From Elusimicrobiota bacterium (lineage in GTDB: Bacteria > Elusimicrobiota > Endomicrobiia > Endomicrobiales > Endomicrobiaceae), in NCBI GenBank assembly GCA_031282945.1, contig JAITCX010000133.1:1-26573 (forward strand): a stretch of DNA of 26,573 nucleotides, written 5' to 3'. The notes under the pieces were generated by a model. The model was not told the DNA's origin. It saw nothing but the letters and a program-made list of their open reading frames with translations, and did no database searches. Below, piece by piece: positions 1-13,241 of the stretch; the first letter of the stretch is position 1, and each line of letters begins with the position of its first letter. The position numbers and the translations under genes are program-made.

Positions 1-515
1 CTAAAAAAATAAAAATATAAGTAAAATAATTTGATAATTTAAAGGAGAATTTTTTTATAATAGATGATATGAAATTGCAGCGGAATTTTAGATTTGCCCA
101 AAAATGCAAAAAAGAAAACTGCGCTTTATGCAATAGCGATGCAAATCCTGTTATTAAGTTTATACACATAACTCTAATTTTTACCTCACCGCCAGTCATG
201 GCCGCCTCTCTTTATCTTTCCAACTCTTAAACTTTTATTGCCGATTTTTTACTATACAAACAGTAAGCCTATGCCTAAAAATATAAGAAAAAATAATACG
301 AAAAGCCCAATAAGATTAAAAATATAGTGTTTATATATTGTTAGGAATTTATTAGTTGTATGTTATTATATATTGTTTTAAAAAGGAAAGCAAGAAATGC
401 AAGCGGTTTTTGCAAAAAATAAAATGTGCGCAAAAAACTTATTTGCTATGCCAAAATAAAACTTAAATAGCGCTAAATTTATTACAATAATTGATCAGCC
501 CGCGCCCTAAAATGT

Positions 516-546
516 AAAAATCCCCAGCTTGCGCCGGGGATTTTTT
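516..546 (-). terminator. Intrinsic terminator at the end of the psuG-yjjI-yjjW-ABC operon
   Basis: Stem AAAATCCCC(AG)..(CC)GGGGATTTT with T/A tracts on both sides, 34 nt downstream of the permease stop codon at 580. Confidence 0.75.
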
Positions 547-579: not shown

Positions 580-1506
580 TCAACGTTGGCCTTTGATATA
601 AGGTTTGTCCAGCGCTTTTGGCATGCTCGCCCTTCCAACAAAAAGCGCCAAAACCACAAGGGTGAGAATATATGGAAGCATCGCCAAAACTGAAGCGGGA
701 ATAAACTGCATCCCCCCCAACATAACCACCAAAGCTTGAGCAAATCCAAAAAGCAGACATGCCCCAAATGCTCCTTGAGGAGTCCACTTTCCAAAAATTA
801 CCGCCGCCAAAGCTATAAATCCATGACCTGAAATTACTGTGGAGCTAAACATGGAAACAACCGACAAGGTCATAGCCGCGCCGCCAAGCCCCGCAAAAAA
901 ACCAGACAAAATTGAACAGGCATAACGCACTGCATAAACGTTTATGCCCAAAGTGTCGGCCGCAGCCGGATGCTCGCCGCAGGCGGTGATGCGCATGCCC
1001 CATTTAGTTTTTGCAAAGAAAAACCACAATACAATTGTTAAAACAATAGCCAAAACGACGCTTGCGTCTATGTTTAAAGCGTTTAATGCGGAATTTTGAG
1101 TTTTTATTGAAAATATAGAAAACATAGTCGGGATCTTTTTTGTAACTGCAATCGTTTGAACCCCGCCGTTAAAATATATCCTGCATAAAAATAGAGCAAG
1201 GCCCGCCCCTATAAAATTTATGGCTATGCCTGAAATAAGTTGATTGGCGCGTAAATTTATGGACGCTATAGCATGAAAAACTACTAAGCCCGCCCCGCTT
1301 AAGCCGCCCATCAAAAATCCAAGCCACGGGTTTTGGGTAAAATATCCAACCGCCGCAGCCACAAAAGCGCCAAGCGTCATCAAACCTTCAAGCCCGATAT
1401 TGTCAACGCCGGAACGCTGCGTTATCACCCCGCCGAGAGCCGTAAAAATTAACGGCGCCGAATACATAAGCGAAATATTTATCGTCAGTAAAATAGAATC
1501 TATCAT
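580..1506 (-). CDS. Nucleoside/sugar ABC transporter permease (BPD_transp_2, NupC/YufQ-like)
   Basis: 308 aa hydrophobic protein; motifs 'RSGVDNIGLEG', 'GMRITACGEHPAAADTLGINV', 'SGHGFIALAAVIFGKW', 'LPYILTL'. 4-nt ATGA overlap with the upstream permease. Confidence 0.92.
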   Translation of the reverse strand: MIDSILLTINISLMYSAPLIFTALGGVITQRSGVDNIGLEGLMTLGAFVAAAVGYFTQNPWLGFLMGGLSGAGLVVFHAIASINLRANQLISGIAINFIGAGLALFLCRIYFNGGVQTIAVTKKIPTMFSIFSIKTQNSALNALNIDASVVLAIVLTIVLWFFFAKTKWGMRITACGEHPAAADTLGINVYAVRYACSILSGFFAGLGGAAMTLSVVSMFSSTVISGHGFIALAAVIFGKWTPQGAFGACLLFGFAQALVVMLGGMQFIPASVLAMLPYILTLVVLALFVGRASMPKALDKPYIKGQR

Positions 1507-2675
1507 TTTGCCGCTCCTTTTGACGCCAACTTGTCATCTTGTTTTGCCTGCCATTCTTTTTTCATTTTCATGGCGGAAAGTTTTGTGGCAATCATTGGGA
1601 ACATTGCAACCAAAGCCACGCAAAAAACTATTGCGCCTATCATAATATTTATAATTTCGCTGGGCGCGCCCATTGAGGATTGAATAGAACCGCCGCCAAA
1701 TTTTAATCCGCTAAAAAGCCAGCCCGAAAGCAATGTGGCAAGAGGATTGTTGTTTGCAAGCAGCGCAACCGAAAGCCCGTCCCACCCAAACCCCTCAGTG
1801 ATGGACAAAACAACTATGCGGGAATTGCTGGTGCCCAAAACTTGAAACGCTCCTCCCAAAGCCGCCAAAGCTCCTGCAATAAACATTGCAAAAACGGTAT
1901 TTTTCTTAATGCTGATGCCCGCAAACTCCGCGGCGCTTGGATTTGCCCCCACAGAACGAAGCTCAAAACCTTTGGTTGTGCGCATAAGAAAAAACCATGT
2001 CGCAAAAACAAATATTAGCGTTAAAATTATTCCAATGTGAATGTCGGTGCGTAAAAAATCTCCCAAAATTGGATGGCTGTTTATAAAAGAAAGACCCTCG
2101 GGAGTTGTTTTCCATTGCGAAAAAAGCCTCATGCTTGCACTCGGCAAAATGTCATAAGATGCCTGCGTGCCGCCTTTTTGAACGCCCGGAATAGAAAGTA
2201 TTGTATTGTTTAAATAAAGAGCTATCCAGTTTAACATAATTGTTGAGACCACTTCATTTGTCCCGTATTTAACTTTCAGCCAGCCGGCAATCGCTCCAAA
2301 TACGCCGCCGAAAAAACAAGCCGCAATTAATATTACAATCGGATGAATAATAATAGGCAAATGCAAATAATATCCAAGCATTGCGGCGGTGATAGTTCCA
2401 ATAATATATTGACCCTCAGCGCCGATATTAAACAATCCGCTGCGGTAGGCAAATGCAACGCTTAAGCCCGTCATAATTATCGGCACGGCATTTATGATGA
2501 TCTGCGAAATATATTTCGGTCTGTCAAACATCCCGCCGATCATTGCGCCATAAGCTTCAAAAGGATTGTAGCCTGCAATCAACAAAACAAAAAATCCAAC
2601 CAAAAACCCTACAATCAAAGCGATGATTATTGCGGATATCGGCTTTTTTAAAATTTCAATTATTTTATCAATCAT
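1503..2675 (-). CDS. Nucleoside/sugar ABC transporter permease (NupB/YufP-like)
   Basis: 390 aa; 'GLFNIGAEGQ', 'GTNEVVSTIMLNWIA', 'GFELRSVGANPSAAEFAGI', 'GFGWDGLSVALLA'. Confidence 0.92.
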   Translation of the reverse strand: MIDKIIEILKKPISAIIIALIVGFLVGFFVLLIAGYNPFEAYGAMIGGMFDRPKYISQIIINAVPIIMTGLSVAFAYRSGLFNIGAEGQYIIGTITAAMLGYYLHLPIIIHPIVILIAACFFGGVFGAIAGWLKVKYGTNEVVSTIMLNWIALYLNNTILSIPGVQKGGTQASYDILPSASMRLFSQWKTTPEGLSFINSHPILGDFLRTDIHIGIILTLIFVFATWFFLMRTTKGFELRSVGANPSAAEFAGISIKKNTVFAMFIAGALAALGGAFQVLGTSNSRIVVLSITEGFGWDGLSVALLANNNPLATLLSGWLFSGLKFGGGSIQSSMGAPSEIINIMIGAIVFCVALVAMFPMIATKLSAMKMKKEWQAKQDDKLASKGAAK

Positions 2676-4201
2676 TTTACGCTGCCTCCTGCCATCAATA
2701 ATCCAACTTCATTTTCATTTGTTTTAGAGGGGTCTAGATCGCCCACAATTTTGCCGTCATAAATTACATTGATGCGGTCGGAAACATCCAAAATTTCGTC
2801 CAACTCAAAACTCACCAAAAGCACAGCTTTGCCTTTGTCCCTTTGCGCTATCAAAGATTTATGCACAAACTCTATTGCGCCTACATCCAAACCTCTCGTG
2901 GGCTGAACCGCCACCAATAAAACTGGATCGTTTTCTATTTCTCTAGCGATAACAACTTTCTGTTGATTGCCGCCCGAGAGAGAACGCGCCAGAGAATGTT
3001 CGCAGTCTGCAGGTCTAATGTCAAATTTGTGGATGAGGGTTTTGGCATTATCAAAAATGTTCTTAAGCTTTAATAAAAGCCTGTCTGCAAATTTTGGGGC
3101 GGCGTACTTTTCCAAAATTAAATTTTCGCATATATCAAAATCCAAAACTAAACCGTATTTATGTCTGTCTTCTGGAATTGTGGCGATGCTGTTTGCCCTA
3201 ATATTGTGAGGAGGCGTGTTTTGAACTTGTTTGCCCTTGATAAGAATTTTTCCGCCGTCAGCTTTTGTAAGACCTGTGAGCGCCTCAATGAGTTCGCTTT
3301 GGCCGTTTCCGTCAATTCCTGCAATGCCCAAAATTTCTCCGGCTCTAACATTTAGAGATAGATTTTTCACTCTGTCTATCCCACGCGAATCTTTTACCCA
3401 CAAATCGCAAATTTCAAAAACTCTTTCTTTAGGTTGAGCAGGGGTCTTAGAAATGTGCAAAGAAACATCTCTTCCTACCATCATTTTTGCAAGGCTGTAC
3501 TCGTCTACGCCTTTGTCTTTAACATCAACGGTATCAATATAATTTCCGCGTCTGATGATTGTGCAGTAATCTGCAGATTTTATAATTTCTTTTAGCTTAT
3601 GGGTAATAATTATCACAGTTTTACCGTCTTGGGTGAGTTTGTGCATGGTATCTATAAGCTCGTCAATTTCATTGGGGGTTAAAACTGCAGTGGGCTCGTC
3701 TAAAATTAACGTTTGCGCGCCGCGGTAAAGACTTTTTAAAATTTCAACTTTTTGCTGAGTGGAAACGGACACATCGCATATTTTTGCATCGCCGTCCACT
3801 ATCATTCCATATTTTTCGCCAAGCTCTTTAATTTTTTCTTTTACAACTGCAGTGTCTATCACATCAAAAGCTTTGACGCTTTCCTTGCCCAACATTATAT
3901 TTTGAGCAATTGTAAAATTTTCCACCAACATAAAATGCTGATGAACCATCCCTATTCCATATTTTATCGCCACATTTGGATTTTTTATATATGCCAATTT
4001 TCCGTCTAAATAAATCTCGCCTTCGTCGGCCTCGTAGAGACCGTAGAGGATATTCATCAATGTGGATTTGCCCGCGCCGTTTTCACCTAAAAGAGCATGA
4101 ATAGTTTTTTTGCGGACATTCAAATTTACGCCATTTAAAGCCTTAAATGTTCCAAAAAATTTTGAAATGCTTTTCATACTTACAGCATAATTTTCGTCCA
4201 C
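2672..4201 (-). CDS. Nucleoside/sugar ABC transporter ATP-binding protein with tandem NBDs (NupA/YufO-like)
   Basis: Walker A GENGAGKST, 'ILDEPT', degenerate second Walker A GIDGNGQSEL, signature LSGGNQQK. Start placed at GTG 4201 because GGAGG lies 5 nt upstream; the ORF track starts at 4219. Confidence 0.92.
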   Translation of the reverse strand: MDENYAVSMKSISKFFGTFKALNGVNLNVRKKTIHALLGENGAGKSTLMNILYGLYEADEGEIYLDGKLAYIKNPNVAIKYGIGMVHQHFMLVENFTIAQNIMLGKESVKAFDVIDTAVVKEKIKELGEKYGMIVDGDAKICDVSVSTQQKVEILKSLYRGAQTLILDEPTAVLTPNEIDELIDTMHKLTQDGKTVIIITHKLKEIIKSADYCTIIRRGNYIDTVDVKDKGVDEYSLAKMMVGRDVSLHISKTPAQPKERVFEICDLWVKDSRGIDRVKNLSLNVRAGEILGIAGIDGNGQSELIEALTGLTKADGGKILIKGKQVQNTPPHNIRANSIATIPEDRHKYGLVLDFDICENLILEKYAAPKFADRLLLKLKNIFDNAKTLIHKFDIRPADCEHSLARSLSGGNQQKVVIAREIENDPVLLVAVQPTRGLDVGAIEFVHKSLIAQRDKGKAVLLVSFELDEILDVSDRINVIYDGKIVGDLDPSKTNENEVGLLMAGGSVK

Positions 4202-4227
4202 TGCGACCTCCCTTCTCATATGCGCTT

Positions 4228-4264
4228 AAAAAAACCGCAAGACGTTTTACGGTCTTGCGGTTTT
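4228..4264 (-). terminator. Intra-operon terminator/attenuator between the BMP lipoprotein and the ABC ATPase
   Basis: Perfect 13-bp stem AAAACCGCAAGAC (4231-4243) / GTCTTGCGGTTTT (4252-4264); ends in a T7 run on the minus strand. Confidence 0.75.
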
Positions 4265-4271
4265 AGCTAAA

Positions 4272-5306
4272 TTACAAACCTTTTATAAACTGCTGATACT
4301 GCGCATCAGTTATTGGAACAATAATTTGTCCATTTATAATTTTGTTTTCAATATCTTTTGTCTTTTGCAAAATGTCGGCTGGAACAAGTTTGCCGCTGGT
4401 TGGCGCAATGCCTACTCCGCCGTCTGAAAGACCCATTTCTACAGTGGTTCCGCCGAGCTTCTCGCCCGCCATAACGCGTTTTGTTACATCGTAAACGCCG
4501 ATATCAACATTTTTCAATGCGCTGGTTATAACATTATCAGGCGCCATATAATTCTGATCTAAGTCAACGCCGATAACCCACAAATTGCGCTCTTTTGCAG
4601 CTTCAATAACTCCTTGTCCAACGCCGCCTGCGGCATGGAAAATTACGTCAGCGCCGCTTGTATACATTTTCAAAGCGGCCGCTTTGCCTTTTGCCGCATC
4701 AGTAAAGGATTCCATAATTTGATAATCCACTTGAATTTTCTTTCCCATTTCTTTTGCGGCATACTGCACGCCTGCAAAATACCCATATTTAAATCTATTC
4801 ATCACTGGACTTTCCATTCCAATAATAAAGCCTACATGATTTGTTTTGGTCATATAAGCCGCAATGTAGCCGACTTCAAAAGAAGATTGTTCCGCTTTAA
4901 AAGTTACGCCGATCACATTTGGAACTGTTCCGTCTGGATATGTGTCGTCAACCAAAGCGAACAATTGATCTGGATTTGCCTGCGCGATTTGTTGGAGAGG
5001 ATCTTTCATCATAAATCCAATTGCCCAAATTATGTCTGCGCCTGCGTCAATTGACTTCTCCAAATTTGGAGCATAGTCGCTGCCTCTATGAGACTCAAGG
5101 AAACTAACCGTTACGCCCTCAGACTTAAGTTTTTCCATTCCCCCCCAAGCTGATTGGTTGAAAGATTGATCGTTTATTCCTCCAACATCCGTTACCATTG
5201 CAGCTTTAAACGCTCCATTGGCTGATTGGTCTTTTTTACCGCCGCAGCCGACAACCAAAACCGCTGCAACTGATAAAACTGCAACCAAAGACAAAAGTCT
5301 TTTCAT
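4272..5306 (-). CDS. BMP-family (PnrA/TmpC-like) nucleoside-binding lipoprotein
   Basis: 344 aa; lipobox 'LVVG-C'; motifs 'DVGGINDQSFNQSAWGG', 'FKAEQSSFEVGYIAA', 'DVIFHAAGGVGQGVIEAAKE', 'IGVDLDQ'; AAGGAG RBS. Confidence 0.92.
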   Translation of the reverse strand: MKRLLSLVAVLSVAAVLVVGCGGKKDQSANGAFKAAMVTDVGGINDQSFNQSAWGGMEKLKSEGVTVSFLESHRGSDYAPNLEKSIDAGADIIWAIGFMMKDPLQQIAQANPDQLFALVDDTYPDGTVPNVIGVTFKAEQSSFEVGYIAAYMTKTNHVGFIIGMESPVMNRFKYGYFAGVQYAAKEMGKKIQVDYQIMESFTDAAKGKAAALKMYTSGADVIFHAAGGVGQGVIEAAKERNLWVIGVDLDQNYMAPDNVITSALKNVDIGVYDVTKRVMAGEKLGGTTVEMGLSDGGVGIAPTSGKLVPADILQKTKDIENKIINGQIIVPITDAQYQQFIKGL

Positions 5307-5344
5307 AGTACTCTCCTTTTTTTTATTTTGCGCCCAAGGCGCAT

Positions 5345-6184
5345 TTATACAACTTTAACTTCATAAAAAAAATCTCGGCAATAATCAAATAATTTTTGCA
5401 TTTCCTCGGGGCTGGTATTTGGCGAGCGTGCAAAATCTCCTCTGACGCCGAAATTTCTAAAAGCTATAAGTTTTAGGCGCGCTTGCAAACTTTTTTTGCC
5501 TAAAAATTCTCTCAAGGCGTCCACAACATTTTTAGGCTGCATCATTGGAAAACAGACTATTCTAATTTCATATAATTTTTTTGCATCAAGCAAAAACAAA
5601 ATATTTTTTTTGACTGTATCATTATCTAAACTACTGCCGCGCGTTACGGTATGATAAGTATCATTATCCCATGATTTTAGATCTATCATGACGCCGTCTG
5701 TAAGAGAAAGCAGATCGGGATAGAGCGAAAAGTCGATGGTTCCGTTGGTGTCTATGAAACTGGAAAGGTTGGATTTTTTTGAAAGGCAAAAGAGGTCTGT
5801 TAAAAAAAAGGGGGCGAGCATACACTCGCCCCCTGATACAGTAATTCCGCTTATAAAGGGTAGATTATTTTGAATTTGGTCAAAAACTGCCATAGCCGGC
5901 ATTTTTGCAACTCTTGGAGAAGAAAAGTTTGGACAAATTTTTATGCAGGCATCGCATTCGCTACAAATTTCCTTTTTCCACAACACTTTTCCATTCTCCT
6001 TATGCAAAGCATTATTGGGACAGATTTTAACACATTTTGCGCAATTATTGCAAACTCTTTGCGTTTCTGGATTATGGCAGTAAATACAAGCCAAGTTGCA
6101 GCCTTGTAAAAAAACAACGCTTCTTGCGCCCGGTCCGTCCACAACGCTAAGAGGAATTATTTTGTTTACAATTGCCTCAATCAT
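5345..6184 (-). CDS. yjjW: YjjW-family glycyl-radical enzyme activating enzyme (radical SAM)
   Basis: 279 aa; 'SVVDGPGARSVVFLQGCNLACIYCHNPET' (CxxxCxxC); two ferredoxin-type motifs CNNCAKCVKICP and CSECDACIKICP; 'GITVSGGEC'; ATGA overlap with yjjI. Confidence 0.88.
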   Translation of the reverse strand: MIEAIVNKIIPLSVVDGPGARSVVFLQGCNLACIYCHNPETQRVCNNCAKCVKICPNNALHKENGKVLWKKEICSECDACIKICPNFSSPRVAKMPAMAVFDQIQNNLPFISGITVSGGECMLAPFFLTDLFCLSKKSNLSSFIDTNGTIDFSLYPDLLSLTDGVMIDLKSWDNDTYHTVTRGSSLDNDTVKKNILFLLDAKKLYEIRIVCFPMMQPKNVVDALREFLGKKSLQARLKLIAFRNFGVRGDFARSPNTSPEEMQKLFDYCRDFFYEVKVV

Positions 6185-7686
6185 ATCAACCTAACCTTCC
6201 TTTCAGCCAGTTTTGAAGCTTTATAATTGGGCGCTCCAAGCGCAACTGTGTCTTGCAAATTTGTTTCGCCCTTAAAGTATTTTTCCATTTCGCTTCTTTT
6301 TACAAGATAGCCCGTTATCCGCACAATATCGGCATCCTGCTCGTAAAAACTCATATACTGAACTCCCAAATTGAAAGCGCCTTTTACAATATCAACTAAA
6401 GCTTGAGAATTATTTTTTGCCGTTTGAGCTATTGGAAAAATATCGCCGACTCCCGCTGGAAAATAATGATGAAATTTTGCGCTGTGGCGTAAATGATCCA
6501 TAAAATTTTCAGGTTCATCGCCCACCGGAATTCTCACCCCTGAGGTTATGCCGATATCTGTGTCCAAACCAACTTGCGCATGCAAAACAAATTTGCCGCC
6601 TGTCAGAGGACTATAGAGCGCATCAAAACCAGCGACAATACTTGTAATTTTGTCCATAATTTTAATGCCCAGCTCGTCAGCTTGAGGCGAATTTCCGTAT
6701 TTTATATTTTTATCTCTCAGCAAAAAATTTACAGCTTCGGCAAGACCCGTCACGCCGAACATTCCAAGAAATCTATCCTTAGAAATAAAATTTTCGGCCG
6801 CCAAAAAACTGCTTTCAAAAAAGTTGGATTTCTCAACAATAAATTTAATGCGCTCGTTCATGTAATCTGCAATTAATTTCAAGCATTCCGGCAAAAGCTC
6901 GTTAAAGAAATGATCCATAGATTTAGCTTCTTTGGCAAGCTCGGTGAGCGTAATTCGGGTGAGCGTATAAGCCCCGCCTGAGAGCGGCAAAATATTGTAG
7001 CAGCTGCAAATGCCGTAATCAGCGCCGAAAGGTTTTTGATTTGCAATGTGGTTTGCAATTGCAGGGTTGGAACACATTAAAGACGTTTCTATAGCATATT
7101 TTAGAAAAGCCTCGTCTGTATTTTTCAGGTCGTATTTTATTGTGAGATTTGGCACGCAGTTTTTTAACTCGCGCTGCGTTTCCAAAATTAAATAGCCAAT
7201 TCTAGTGGCCTTGGGGCCGATATTTGCATGGCAAAAAGAATCGGTGATTGTTCTGTCCAAATAAGTTAAAAACAATTTTAGTTTGTAGCGGATCTCATCG
7301 TCTGTAAGGCCGTCAACGTATGGACTAAGCAGCTCGTCTAATTGACCGACATAGACGGGAAAACTTGTGATGGACGGCGTATGTCTATAAATTATTGCAA
7401 GATTTGTAAGCGCTTGATCTAAATTTTTTGCAGGACCAAGTCTTAAAAATTTGCTGCCCTCTTTTAAAAATTTTCCAAAATCAGCTTGAATGTAGCGCGG
7501 GCGGTACGGCGCATGCCCCTCCGCTAAATCGTTTATTGCGCCCGTTTCAAAATAATGTTTTGTCCTCGGGGGAATGTTTAAAACATCAATAGAGTTTTCG
7601 GCAAGTTTAGCAAGCGTTATAAGCTTTTGCTCGTAGGTAAGTTTTTTGGATGTGATAGTGTCATAAATTAGGTCATTAGCGTTCAT
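6181..7686 (-). CDS. yjjI: YjjI-family glycyl radical enzyme (DUF3029)
   Basis: 501 aa; 'EGHAPYRPRYI', 'HTPSITSFPVYVGQLD', 'FCHANIGP', 'CSCYNILPLSGG', C-terminal glycyl loop 'IVRITGYLVK'; GAGGAGG RBS. Confidence 0.88.
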   Translation of the reverse strand: MNANDLIYDTITSKKLTYEQKLITLAKLAENSIDVLNIPPRTKHYFETGAINDLAEGHAPYRPRYIQADFGKFLKEGSKFLRLGPAKNLDQALTNLAIIYRHTPSITSFPVYVGQLDELLSPYVDGLTDDEIRYKLKLFLTYLDRTITDSFCHANIGPKATRIGYLILETQRELKNCVPNLTIKYDLKNTDEAFLKYAIETSLMCSNPAIANHIANQKPFGADYGICSCYNILPLSGGAYTLTRITLTELAKEAKSMDHFFNELLPECLKLIADYMNERIKFIVEKSNFFESSFLAAENFISKDRFLGMFGVTGLAEAVNFLLRDKNIKYGNSPQADELGIKIMDKITSIVAGFDALYSPLTGGKFVLHAQVGLDTDIGITSGVRIPVGDEPENFMDHLRHSAKFHHYFPAGVGDIFPIAQTAKNNSQALVDIVKGAFNLGVQYMSFYEQDADIVRITGYLVKRSEMEKYFKGETNLQDTVALGAPNYKASKLAERKVRLI

Positions 7687-7750
7687 TGGATGCCTCCTCT
7701 AAATAAGCCCTCTCCAACATGTTTTCTCAGGTTGGATCTTCTAATTAAAA

Positions 7751-8686
7751 CTACTTTATATTTACAAATCCAACCGCTATTTTTGCGGCAAGATCTGCAT
7801 TGCTGTAGGCAAGCTGCATATTTGTTTCAAGCGATTTGCCGGCGGTGATATCTTTAATTTTGGAAAGTAAAAACGGCGTAACTTCTTTTCCCTTTATGCC
7901 TTTTTCTTGCGCTTCCTTGACAGCATTTTCTATCGCATCTGAAATTATTTTTTCATCCATTGCATATTCTTTTGGGACGGGATTGGCAACGACAATTCCA
8001 TTTTTAACGCCCATCAATTCATTGAAACGCATGGCCTGCGCTACAAATGTAGGATCGGGCACGGTGTGGTCTAAAGCGTAGCCGCTTGAGCGGGTAAAAA
8101 ATGCGGGAAAATCTTTTGTGTCGCCGATGCCGACAACGGGAACGCCTTTAGTTTCCAAAAATTCCAAAGTGAGTTTTATGTCTAAAATAGATTTGGCGCC
8201 CGAACATACAACGGTGACGGGAGTTCTGGAAAGCTCCTCTAAATCTGAAGAGATATCCATAGTTGTTTGCGCGCCGCGATGCACGCCGCCGATGCCGCCT
8301 GTGGCAAAAACATTGATGCCGCAGAGATTGGCAATACGCATTGTTGCAGACACCGTTGTGCCGCCCAGTTTGCGCCGCGCTAAGACCAGCGGAATATCTT
8401 TAGCGGCAACCTTTATAACATCTTTAGCTTTGGCCAAATCGTCCAGTTCCTGCTCAGTCATTCCAATTTTTATTTTGCCGTCAACCAAAGCGATGAGAGC
8501 GGCGGCGGCTCCCTGCGATTCTATGATGCTTTGCATTTTCAAAGCTGTTTGTTTATTTTCAGGATAAGGCATTCCATGCGTGATAATTGTGGATTCCAGC
8601 GCCACTACAGGAAGCCCATTTTTTATTGCTTGCTGAACTGATTTGCTGATGTCTACAAAATACAAATTAGGATCTTTAAGTGTCAT
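7751..8686 (-). CDS. psuG: Pseudouridine-5'-phosphate glycosidase (PsuG/IndA family)
   Basis: 311 aa; 'PVVALESTIITHGMPYP', 'ATGGIGGVHRG', 'DISSDL', 'CSGAKSILD', 'GKEVTPFLL'; AAGGAG RBS. Confidence 0.93.
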   Translation of the reverse strand: MTLKDPNLYFVDISKSVQQAIKNGLPVVALESTIITHGMPYPENKQTALKMQSIIESQGAAAALIALVDGKIKIGMTEQELDDLAKAKDVIKVAAKDIPLVLARRKLGGTTVSATMRIANLCGINVFATGGIGGVHRGAQTTMDISSDLEELSRTPVTVVCSGAKSILDIKLTLEFLETKGVPVVGIGDTKDFPAFFTRSSGYALDHTVPDPTFVAQAMRFNELMGVKNGIVVANPVPKEYAMDEKIISDAIENAVKEAQEKGIKGKEVTPFLLSKIKDITAGKSLETNMQLAYSNADLAAKIAVGFVNIK

Positions 8687-8819: not shown

Positions 8820-8857
8820 CTGATTTTTTTCTTTTGTAAAAAAGAATAATGGAATTA

Positions 8858-9063
8858 TTTCTCTTTTGGCAAAAGAGAAACAGAAAAGTAAAGGCAAAGC
8901 ATTTTTCTCTTTTTGAAAAAAGAGAAACAGAAAAACTAACGGCGCTTAAACGTTTATTCTCTCTTTGAAAAAGAGAGACAGAAATTTCTTTTGCCAAAGG
9001 AAACAAAAACTTCTAACGACACTTGCAACTGGCTTCTCTTTTCTGCAAAAGAGAGACAGAAAA
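8858..9063. repeat. Array of five degenerate palindromic units, consensus TCTCTTTT-n(2-4)-AAAAGAGA(A/G)ACAGAAA
   Basis: Units start at about 8858, 8904, 8958, 8985 and 9035; a weaker unit lies at about 8829-8846. Confidence 0.8.
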
Positions 9064-9504: not shown

Positions 9505-9820
9505 AACGCAGGCGAGGGCGACCATACATCAACAACAGCAACAACAAAACAAAAAAATCTCTCGCAAAGCAAACGCTTACGCTCCGCTACGCCGAAAAAC
9601 CAAAAAGAGCGCTGGAAAAATTACAACGCGACAAAGACAAACAACAACAGCGGAAAACATTTCTCTTTTAAAAAAAACAAAATAAAAATTTTTCCCCTCA
9701 TCTCTTAACAACAACTCCCGCCCCAAAATTATTTTTTAAAACTGTTTGATTTCTCCCTTAAACTTCAACTTTTTTGGCTTTTCCTTGAACCCTTTATTTC
9801 CTTGCCCCACCGCTACATCT

Positions 9821-10885: not shown

Positions 10886-11635
10886 TTATCTCACTTTATA
10901 AATTTTATGCAGCTGCGCCATTGGATATACATTTTTAAGAAATTTTACCGCTATCTCCCTACAAATAAACAATTTATCTAAACCCGCCGCCCGTCTATCC
11001 GTTGAAGGCTGCAAAATAAATAAAACGCTTTTTGAAATTGTAGATATAGCTTTTGCAGCCTCTAAAATCTCAATGCCTTCCGTATCTTTTGTTATAACGC
11101 ATTTAACAAAAATATCTTTTATACGAGATCTCAAAGCATAACTCAAAAAAAGTTTATGCGCTGTCAAAAAATCTAATTTGCATGCAGAATATAATTTGAT
11201 GTCCATAGAAATTATATCAACAAATTTTATTATTTGCTTTAAACTTTCGCATAATACGCCGTTTGACTGCAAATAAATATTAAAACCTAATTTTGTAATT
11301 TCAGCCAAAAATTTTCTCAAAAAAATTATATGCAGCAAAGGCTCGCCGCCCGTCAATGAAATATAAGGTTTTTTTGTATTAAACTTTTTTTTATTGTTGT
11401 CGCGCACGCTCAATACTTTTTTAATTAAGCGCTCAACGCTAAATATCTCAGGATTTTTTATAAAACCTTGCGGCGTATCGCAATAATTGCATCTCAAATT
11501 GCAGCCCGCAAAACGAATAAAAATTTGCGCCATCCCAGCATACGGTCCCTCACCTTGATATGAAAAAAATATCTCGGATATCGGCGCCCCAATCTCTGCG
11601 GCGCCATCTGCTTTTTTTTCTAAACGCTTAGGCAT
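10886..11635 (-). CDS. queE: 7-carboxy-7-deazaguanine synthase QueE-like radical SAM protein
   Basis: 'SEIFFSYQGEGPYAG', 'FIRFAGCNLRCNYCDT', 'SLTGGEPLL', C-terminal 'QLHK'. Start set to ATG 11635, which overlaps the upstream stop. Confidence 0.8.
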   Translation of the reverse strand: MPKRLEKKADGAAEIGAPISEIFFSYQGEGPYAGMAQIFIRFAGCNLRCNYCDTPQGFIKNPEIFSVERLIKKVLSVRDNNKKKFNTKKPYISLTGGEPLLHIIFLRKFLAEITKLGFNIYLQSNGVLCESLKQIIKFVDIISMDIKLYSACKLDFLTAHKLFLSYALRSRIKDIFVKCVITKDTEGIEILEAAKAISTISKSVLFILQPSTDRRAAGLDKLFICREIAVKFLKNVYPMAQLHKIYKVR

Positions 11636-13241
11636 TATTTTTTCCCATAGAACGCAAATACTGATTAAAACGCCCAATATAATCTACCGCCGCCTGTGAA
11701 CTTATATTAAAAGTTTTTGCCATTTTGTCTATCCAAATATCTACATTTTTTTGATCGTTTAAATATGCATACCCGATTACAATGCTTGCATACACTTGCG
11801 GAACTTCCATTTGTTTATTGTCAACCATCAATTGATAAACTTTTATCGCATTATTAAAATCGCCCGACAACAAAAAAGCCTGCCCCAATGCATAATTTAT
11901 TTCATTATAAGAAAATCTCAAAGCATTGGCCGCCGGCAATAATTGCCTCACCGCTTCCTGCGGCCTGCCCGCTTGCATGAGAGCATAAGCGTAAAATTTG
12001 TCTATGGTGAAATCTTTCCTTTTTGCTTGAGATAAAATTTTTCCCCAAAAAGCAAGTTGGCCGTTAAAATAATTCATTTGATTAAAAGTTAATATGCAAC
12101 AAACTATCAATAAAACAGATACAAAACTTAAAACTGCAATTTTTATTTTTTGTTTTGCCTTTTCGCCATTGTCTATAAACGGCGATAAAAAAGAATAAAA
12201 TAAAACTATAAAACCAAACATTGCAACATACATCCTGTTTCCCTGAAACCATAAACGCTCGCTTATCAATGCAGGCAAAATGAAAAATAAAGGCAGTAAA
12301 AAATAAAAAATATTTCTCTTTAATTTTGTCTTATCTTTTGTTGCAAAAATAAAAAAAGCAAAAACTAAAAAAGAAATAATTCCCATCACGGTAATCCATC
12401 CCCCTGTGTTTGGCGCAAAAGGCGAGCGTAAAAAAAACACAGAAGCGTAATAATCCCAAGTCATGCCGATATTGTCGTCTGTTAAATTTAATCTGCTAGG
12501 AAATCCGCCCCCCTCAATATGCAAAGCAAATTTACGCATATATGTAAAAAATATAATTGAACAAATCCATAACGCCAACAAAATTAAAAATTCTTTTTTT
12601 CTAAAAAAACTCCATTTTTTTTGTTCTACTAAAACGGCATATAAAACAAAAATTGCAGGAATAATAAGCGCTGATTCTCGGGTAAAAAAACAAATCAATA
12701 AAAATAAAATATGCGCAAATATATCCAATGGTTTTTTATCGTTTATAAAACGTATAAAGAAAATTAAAGCTAAAATAAAAGCTATAAAAAATATAGAATC
12801 ATTTCTGCCCGGTATCCATGCCGCTGTATAAATCATTATCGGGAAAACGGCAAAAGTTACGGCGGCTAAAAATGAAACTAGTTTGCTAAAAACATATTTG
12901 TATAAAAATAAAAATAATAAAACGCAGGAAAATGCATGGAGTAAAATATTTGTAAAGTGGGAAAATTTTTCGGATTCGCCTGCAATGTGATTGTCAGCTA
13001 TAAAAGAAACCGCAAGCATCGGCCTATAATAAGGCGTAGGGGATTTTTCAAATAAAACATTGTGCGCGAAAGCATTAAAAAACGCCCCTGCGCCTTTATA
13101 CTCGCTTGAGGCGGTATAAACAAAATTTACATCGTCAAGTCCAGTGTTTTTAAAGTTTATTGTCTTTGCATAAAGCAAAAAAGCTATAAGAAAAACTATT
13201 GCGCTCAGGACGCCTAAATTAGCAAACTTTGACTTAAACAT
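11628..13241 (-). CDS. Multi-pass membrane protein with C-terminal TPR-like region (TMTC-like, GT-C fold glycosyltransferase candidate)
   Basis: 537 aa; N-terminal 'LDD', 'YYRPM', 'HFTNILLH', 'AAWIPGRND', 'FTRESA', 'NRMY'; C-terminal 'YALGQAFLLSGDFNNAIKVYQ' looks TPR-like. Confidence 0.65.
   Translation of the reverse strand: MFKSKFANLGVLSAIVFLIAFLLYAKTINFKNTGLDDVNFVYTASSEYKGAGAFFNAFAHNVLFEKSPTPYYRPMLAVSFIADNHIAGESEKFSHFTNILLHAFSCVLLFLFLYKYVFSKLVSFLAAVTFAVFPIMIYTAAWIPGRNDSIFFIAFILALIFFIRFINDKKPLDIFAHILFLLICFFTRESALIIPAIFVLYAVLVEQKKWSFFRKKEFLILLALWICSIIFFTYMRKFALHIEGGGFPSRLNLTDDNIGMTWDYYASVFFLRSPFAPNTGGWITVMGIISFLVFAFFIFATKDKTKLKRNIFYFLLPLFFILPALISERLWFQGNRMYVAMFGFIVLFYSFLSPFIDNGEKAKQKIKIAVLSFVSVLLIVCCILTFNQMNYFNGQLAFWGKILSQAKRKDFTIDKFYAYALMQAGRPQEAVRQLLPAANALRFSYNEINYALGQAFLLSGDFNNAIKVYQLMVDNKQMEVPQVYASIVIGYAYLNDQKNVDIWIDKMAKTFNISSQAAVDYIGRFNQYLRSMGKNNA

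Follow-up and report, generated by a model that had tools for sequence, protein, structure and literature searches.

A YjjI/YjjW operon with psuG and a Bmp-type importer in an Elusimicrobiota genome: a candidate for radical chemistry at the ribosyl moiety of nucleosides

Genes, signals and origin of the operon

The DNA analyzed here, 26,573 nt in length and referred to below as the window, is contig JAITCX010000133.1 of the Elusimicrobiota assembly GCA_031282945.1 (Endomicrobiaceae), which derives from a termite-gut metagenome. Seven co-directional open reading frames (ORFs) lie on its minus strand, from 8686 to 580, and encode the pseudouridine-5'-phosphate glycosidase PsuG, a YjjI-family glycyl radical enzyme (GRE), the activase YjjW, a Bmp-type binding protein, an ATP-binding cassette (ABC) ATPase and two permeases. 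All seven were found where an earlier reading of the bare sequence (the original prediction) had placed them. This is a genuine, intact YjjI/YjjW operon in a rare pseudouridine-linked form, which was probably transferred. On balance, we favor the view that it is a horizontally acquired operon for anaerobic nucleoside scavenging, in which YjjI would perform a ribosyl-directed radical step.

The first gene, psuG (7751..8686; PF04227, 411 bits), is directly 5' of yjjI (6181..7686), whose product is matched by PF11230 with 683.5 bits over the complete profile (1-485 of 485) and by TIGR04040 with 660 bits, against a cut-off of 498.3. The dedicated radical S-adenosylmethionine (radical-SAM) activase is encoded by yjjW (5345..6184; TIGR04041, 345 bits against a cut-off of 250) and has the radical-SAM motif CX3CX2C at C29-C36, plus two ferredoxin-type cluster motifs, CX2CX2CX3C. 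Then come bmp (4272..5306; PF02608, 266 bits), encoding a Bmp/PnrA-family substrate-binding lipoprotein that probably binds nucleosides, the gene for an ABC ATPase with two ATP-binding domains (2672..4219; PF00005 twice, and CUT2-type matches that are all under the equivalog cut-offs), and those for permease 1 (1503..2675) and permease 2 (580..1506), both PF02653 proteins. The ATGA overlaps that had been predicted are present at three junctions, yjjI/yjjW (4 nt), ATPase/permease 1 and permease 1/permease 2, and the remaining gaps are 64 bp (psuG-yjjI), 38 bp (yjjW-bmp) and 52 bp (bmp-ATPase). There is no psuK, regulator, phosphorylase or deaminase gene in the operon.

A terminator hairpin with a 13-bp stem and a U run follows permease 2 (513..545, minus strand), and the 76-nt stretch folded there has an energy of -21.9 kcal/mol (z -3.0). 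It had been described as the one final terminator of the operon, but two further terminator-like hairpins are found within it on the same strand. One lies in the bmp/ATPase gap (4228..4262; -21.6 kcal/mol, z -5.6, followed by U7) and is a possible attenuator, which would give an excess of binding-protein mRNA. The other falls within the coding sequence of yjjW (5809..5834), where it spans the codons for the segment SGGECMLAPFF; it is a perfect 11-bp GC-rich stem followed by U8 (-23.6 kcal/mol, z -5.8), and could either act as an internal attenuator or have arisen by chance. As for the predicted upstream promoter region, two promoter-like hexamer pairs that match the consensus at 9 of 12 positions are present 5' of psuG (8872-8843 and 8819-8791, minus strand), but the number of such sites in the region is no higher than expected from shuffled sequence.

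PsuG is ~55% identical to its E. coli counterpart (313 bits to structure 4GIJ), and its residues E31, D148 and K165 align with Glu31, Asp149 and Lys166 of that enzyme, which we take to be catalytic. The best PDB match of the Bmp protein is 7X0R, 'Lbp', and its solved relatives include BmpD of Borrelia (6SHU; E 2.5e-52) and PnrA/TmpC of Treponema (2FQW; E 5e-46). With the binding protein, the CUT2-type double ATPase and the two PF02653 permeases, the system has the makeup of a Bmp/PnrA importer with a putative nucleoside ligand.

The assembly comprises 1.5 Mb in 252 contigs and is 85.5% complete. Among 401 sampled genomes of the host phylum, a real YjjI was found only in this one, and among 89 genomes of the host family the same was true of PsuG. 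Neither yjjI nor psuG was found in any other member of the family, which suggests a transfer from Clostridia. The closest relatives of all seven operon proteins are clostridial (e.g. Anaerotruncus and Clostridium minihomine), and two Anaerotruncus loci, L018 and L019, carry psuG, Bmp-ABC, crp and yjjI-yjjW together, with a psuK called in L019. The GC content is 41.5% in the operon, 37.1% in the genome and 34.5% in the rest of the window. Judging from these sequence comparisons, the module was probably acquired horizontally from Clostridia. A binning error is an unlikely explanation, because the contig carries a dispersed palindromic repeat in common with over 100 more contigs of this assembly.

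This palindromic element is ~24-30 nt long, has the form GTTTCTCTTTT-N2-6-AAAAGAGAAA and is often followed by CAGAAAA. In the window it occurs at 8857-9063, and also at 9659, 15144 and 15234; the assembly holds ~357 copies, in clusters of 3-6 at a spacing of ~50 nt and often at the end of a contig. It resembles a highly abundant dispersed repeat of the REP/BIME type (repetitive extragenic palindrome/bacterial interspersed mosaic element), and probably explains the fragmentation of the assembly. The copies 5' of psuG were considered as operators of the operon, a role rejected in view of its abundance throughout the assembly. Another rejected candidate was a radical-SAM ORF 2.2 kb upstream of the operon (10886-11677, minus strand), located beside PMT_2/DUF6056 membrane glycosyltransferase-like genes. 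Although it clustered with YjjW in BLAST, it is a small, generic NrdG2/QueE-like protein that scores below all curated cut-offs and does not resemble a YjjW relative.

Gene neighborhoods of yjjI

Full-text literature searches turned up no functional or substrate assignment for YjjI, YjjW or DUF3029, in line with the original prediction, and a broad GRE review of June 2026 does not mention YjjI. In a preprint of August 2026 (10.64898/2026.08.13.742689), Gly465 of E. coli YjjI was labeled by a radical probe in living cells, and the protein was called uncharacterized. A 2011 paper guessed at a role in nitrogen metabolism from co-regulation of the FNR/NarP type; yjjI carries FNR motifs and, in Yersinia, is induced anaerobically.

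In a HMMER search of the library, only ~18 full-length clusters of the YjjI family were found at 50% identity, and at least 596 YjjI loci emerged from a scan of ~186,000 representative genomes, one for each species. Related loci were located with an alignment of nine YjjI sequences, and the 80 closest of the at least 596 (52-69% identity) were taken with 10-kb flanks. These came mostly from Bacillota, with some from Bacteroidales and from spirochaete metagenome-assembled genomes (MAGs), and 74 of them could be scored by ORF clustering and family scans. The original prediction had proposed such a survey for nucleoside genes, and the enrichment was strong: at least one was present within ten genes of yjjI in 49 of the 74 loci, and in 23 of 31 groups dereplicated at 80% identity. 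Nucleoside families accounted for 18-25% of the ORFs within nine genes of yjjI, where general gene content would lead one to expect ~1% by chance.

Besides YjjW (66 of the 74 loci), the recurrent neighbors were a Crp/Fnr-type regulator (33), a Bmp-ABC importer (32), energy-coupling factor (ECF) transporter ATPases (16), DeoB (8), DeoC (7) and the NupG symporter (3), along with the nucleoside-cleaving and deaminating enzymes considered below. The importer may be encoded upstream of yjjIW, downstream or divergently, and belongs to at least three unrelated families (Bmp-ABC, ECF and NupG). Since the arrangements and importers vary, the association of yjjIW with nucleoside genes has formed more than once. 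Genes for a nucleoside hydrolase, a PfkB kinase, a purine nucleoside phosphorylase (PNP) and a Bmp-ABC system also accompany yjjI in P0004, a very distant clade of the family.

The cleaving and deaminating partners are skewed toward pyrimidines: uridine phosphorylase (Udp) was found at 20-22 loci, cytidine deaminase (Cdd) at 15-16, a PsuK-like kinase with a fused helix-turn-helix domain at 7 and the pyrimidine-nucleoside phosphorylase Pdp at 3 of the 74 loci, and PsuG at 5 of the 80, as compared with 8 of the 74 for the DeoD-type PNP. This could mean that YjjI acts on the uracil released by PsuG, Udp, Pdp or Cdd plus Udp. Such a step would start the breakdown of uracil without a need for oxygen, and would also draw the reversible reactions of the glycosidase and phosphorylases onward; the PsuG of the operon described here makes uracil. 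However, three loci (L013, L014 and L052) have the DeoD-type phosphorylase without Udp, and no conserved ring-opening enzyme, uracil permease or amidohydrolase was seen among the recurrent neighbors. In addition, the closest fold to that of YjjI (see below) belongs to a ribose-acting enzyme. We had assigned all neighbors with the PNP_UDP_1 domain to uridine phosphorylase, an assignment dropped when 8 of the 30 were re-scored as DeoD-type, which weakens a purely pyrimidine or uracil reading. In our estimation, uracil is a very unlikely substrate.

A dedicated pseudouridine pathway is not supported, since psuG is near yjjI in only 5 of 80 loci and the operon is without psuK; in at least three of those five loci, psuK is in the same neighborhood. 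The broader inference of the original prediction, that YjjI acts on a nucleoside-derived substrate, is supported by the enrichment; a specific role in pseudouridine metabolism is not.

Some further features of the related loci were observed. Directly 3' of yjjW in three of them from Mollicutes-like/Bacilli MAGs (L020, L034 at 7767-8198, and L038) is a gene for a 143-aa protein without any Pfam or NCBIfam match; it has an H-x-H-x-H-type motif, HLHCHLCP, and may be a nucleotide-acting protein of the histidine-triad kind. Two YjjI paralogues occur in some genomes, for example in the order yjjI-yjjW-yjjI at L041, and at two separate loci in Hungatella hathewayi (G401). In some Clostridia of the Bacillota sample (e.g. 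G499, G539, G577 and G639), the DeoC matches lie in frames of 480-580 aa, which suggests that DeoC is fused to another domain.

Active site, fold and proposed reaction of YjjI

The radical site of YjjI, Gly459 in RITGYLVKR, aligns with G465 of E. coli YjjI, whose labeling by the radical probe gives indirect support for a glycyl radical, and Cys229, in an SCYN loop (S228-C229-Y230-N231) on a beta-hairpin, corresponds to E. coli C236. Neither motif, R456-I-T-G459-Y or S228-C229-Y-N231, varies among 18 family representatives, and over 94 sequences both are conserved to at least 97%. The arginines R64, R244 and R385 are also invariant and are candidates for a phosphate site. Across these 94 members, C229 is the sole universally conserved cysteine, and no second conserved one was found. 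No relative with a solved structure could be found for YjjI by sequence. A confident AlphaFold2 model built on the 18 representatives (predicted local distance difference test 92, predicted TM-score 0.92) has class III ribonucleotide reductases (RNRs) as its nearest PDB folds (Foldseek E 6.5e-18, TM 0.66-0.76, TMq 0.65-0.76), followed by PflD/YbiW, hydroxyproline dehydratases (HypD) and propanediol dehydratase.

The sequence relation to the class III RNR, NrdD, is distant. YjjI fails the NrdD model TIGR02487 (30 bits against a cut-off of 326), has a partial match to PF13597 (39 bits, residues 237-447) and gives a weak profile match to NrdD in hhalign (probability 89-93%). Profile alignment to the NrdD of the same genome places C229 on the NrdD cysteine loop. 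For Cys175 of E. coli NrdD, the hhalign alignment gives, with moderate confidence, no counterpart in YjjI: there is a gap beside the invariant R64-Y65, opposite N174-C175. YjjI is thus of NrdD-like fold by its predicted structure, but not a member of the NrdD family. As a bona fide NrdD is encoded separately in the genome and YjjI does not pass the NrdD models, a role as the ribonucleotide reductase of the cell was rejected. That NrdD itself seems to be split, into a 689-aa ORF (contig C89, L107:1420-3489, minus strand) and an overlapping 60-aa ORF after it (1241-1423), whose match covers the final 30 positions of the NrdD profile, its glycyl-radical end; the split could stem from a frameshift or from an error in sequencing, or it could be natural.

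The partner routes found around yjjI, namely Udp, DeoD or Pdp with DeoB, a nucleoside hydrolase with a kinase, and PsuG, would all yield a base and ribose phosphate. Because there are purine-only loci, no product other than ribose phosphate is shared by all of the architectures. The nucleoside itself is equally possible as a substrate, because there are also minimal modules in which an importer accompanies yjjIW (L017, L024, L028, L034, L042, and Neobacillus loci with NupG). Taking the shared ribose phosphate together with the RNR-like fold, ribosyl-directed radical chemistry is the best hypothesis. We infer both the substrate class and the type of reaction, and regard it as rather probable that YjjI is an NrdD-like radical enzyme acting on the ribosyl part of nucleosides.

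The operon could then operate as follows. The Bmp-type ABC system would import nucleosides, and PsuG would cleave pseudouridine-5'-phosphate to uracil and ribose-5-phosphate. YjjW would activate YjjI to its glycyl-radical form, and YjjI would perform its radical step, without oxygen, on the ribosyl part, either of the nucleoside itself or, with slightly greater probability, of the released ribose phosphate. In this step, the thiyl radical of C229 would abstract a hydrogen beside a hydroxyl group, and the adjacent hydroxyl would be lost, as in class III RNRs. The outcome may be a dehydration, or a reduction with an external reductant such as formate, with a product that would enter glycolysis or the DeoB/DeoC route. 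With a single cysteine, YjjI is more likely to act as a dehydratase, or to use formate directly, than to perform the two-residue reduction of NrdD. Going by established GRE mechanisms, an active site with one cysteine would fit redox-neutral radical eliminases better than the known reductase mechanism.

A more specific form of this proposal, that YjjI removes the 2-hydroxyl of ribose-5-phosphate (or of a ribonucleoside) as a base-independent RNR-like dehydratase or formate-dependent reductase, is put forward tentatively, and we would sooner expect it to be wrong than right. If true, RNA-derived ribose could enter the deoxyribose-phosphate aldolase route to glyceraldehyde-3-phosphate and a C2 unit. 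This would constitute an undescribed anaerobic splitting of pentoses and would provide a function for an unassigned GRE of E. coli.

The RNR-like fold could also serve a different purpose. YjjI might strip the modification from an RNA-derived modified nucleoside that is refractory to ordinary phosphorylases, such as a 2'-O-methyl nucleoside, the 2' substituent being lost in the fashion of RNRs to leave a normal substrate of Udp, DeoD or DeoC. The minimal modules of importer and yjjIW would fit such a role, as would the recurrence beside yjjIW of pseudouridine genes, which represent another modified-nucleoside route. However, this idea is speculative: no methyl-handling or modification-specific genes recur nearby, and the stand-alone yjjIW of archaea and Proteobacteria suggests a common, endogenous substrate. 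We consider it hardly probable.

Several points weigh against a ribosyl-directed role for YjjI in nucleoside scavenging. No nucleoside genes were found near yjjIW in the representatives from Proteobacteria, an archaeon and other distant clades, nor at the Bacteroidales loci; the original idea that nucleoside context is a clue to YjjI is borne out in the related loci, but distant clades stand alone and the link is not universal. DeoC was present in 49 of 50 YjjI-carrying genomes, compatible with YjjI feeding DeoC, but this is weak evidence, as the background in the phylum sample is already 86% (172 of 201). A reductase working by the known NrdD mechanism seems unlikely from the sequence, because there is one conserved cysteine and nothing at the Cys175 position. 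Proteins of the Bmp family can also bind ligands other than nucleosides, for example riboflavin. Lastly, neither psuK nor udp nor deoB was recognized in the assembly, which is 85.5% complete, so that no source of pseudouridine-5'-phosphate is apparent. Cdd, Pdp and DeoC are encoded elsewhere in the assembly. By sequence inspection, the four PfkB proteins of the genome are FruK-like, tagatose/fructose-kinase-like, RfaE and KdgK, and the best PfkB match to PsuK is only 27% identical.

Taken further, the yjjIW genes of distant clades without nucleoside neighbors could indicate that the genes cluster through common anaerobic or catabolite control, or through the shuffling of operons, and that the substrate of YjjI is unrelated to nucleosides. 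The Crp/Fnr-type regulator, at 33 loci, is as frequent as any partner, and the yjjI neighbors in Bacteroidales encode FbaA, an OPT transporter and an acetyl-CoA hydrolase/transferase-family protein. However, the recurrence of several architectures with at least three unrelated importer families would be hard to obtain without a functional link, and it extends to Bacillota, a spirochaete MAG, E. coli, the distant P0004 clade and the present genome. Co-regulation or shuffling without a functional link is, in our view, unlikely.

If YjjI does act on the ribosyl part, it would bring a new reaction type to the anaerobic scavenging of nucleosides and RNA in gut ecosystems. YjjI and YjjW are catalogued without an assigned function, in E. 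coli and in at least 596 of the ~186,000 representative species genomes, and the conserved neighbors narrow the search for a substrate to nucleosides and nucleoside phosphates, along with the phosphates of ribose and deoxyribose. The operon described here adds a pseudouridine-linked variant without psuK, and evidence that the module has moved between phyla as a unit. Also new are the argument that ribose phosphate is the sole product shared by all partner enzymes and the finding of no second catalytic cysteine in YjjI.

Comparison with known systems

With the class III RNR, YjjI shares a glycyl radical site in the C-terminal region and a finger-loop cysteine that would form the thiyl radical. 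It differs in having ~13-15% identity to NrdD and ~200 fewer residues, in showing no Zn-ribbon cysteines or ATP-cone in the alignment, and in its single conserved cysteine, with nothing opposite Cys175.

The sugar-phosphate and diol dehydratase GREs (PflD/YbiW, propanediol dehydratase and HypD) are the next-best structural matches. They are one-cysteine, redox-neutral radical eliminases, and the PflD/YbiW structures hold 1,5-anhydro-hexitol 6-phosphates according to their PDB titles, indicating that GREs can bind cyclic sugar phosphates. Unlike YjjI, these enzymes are ~800 aa long, are members of PF02901 and carry a Cys-x-Glu loop in place of Cys-Tyr-Asn.

The PsuK/PsuG (YeiC/YeiN) pathway is represented by a homologous PsuG in which the aligned catalytic positions are kept, whereas no psuK is present in the operon or recognized in the genome.

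The closest known counterpart is the YjjI/YjjW pair of E. coli K-12 (b4380 and b4379). The E. coli YjjI is of the same family, with ~42-45% identity to this clade, a length of 516 aa compared with 501 aa here, the same glycine and cysteine motifs, and an overlapping activase gene. Nucleoside genes are next door in both cases. The host differs, being here a termite-gut bacterium with a small genome and with relatives that lack the YjjI family. In E. coli, as the original prediction correctly noted, yjjI-yjjW is divergent from deoCABD, whereas here the pair lies inside a single co-directional operon with psuG and the Bmp-ABC genes.

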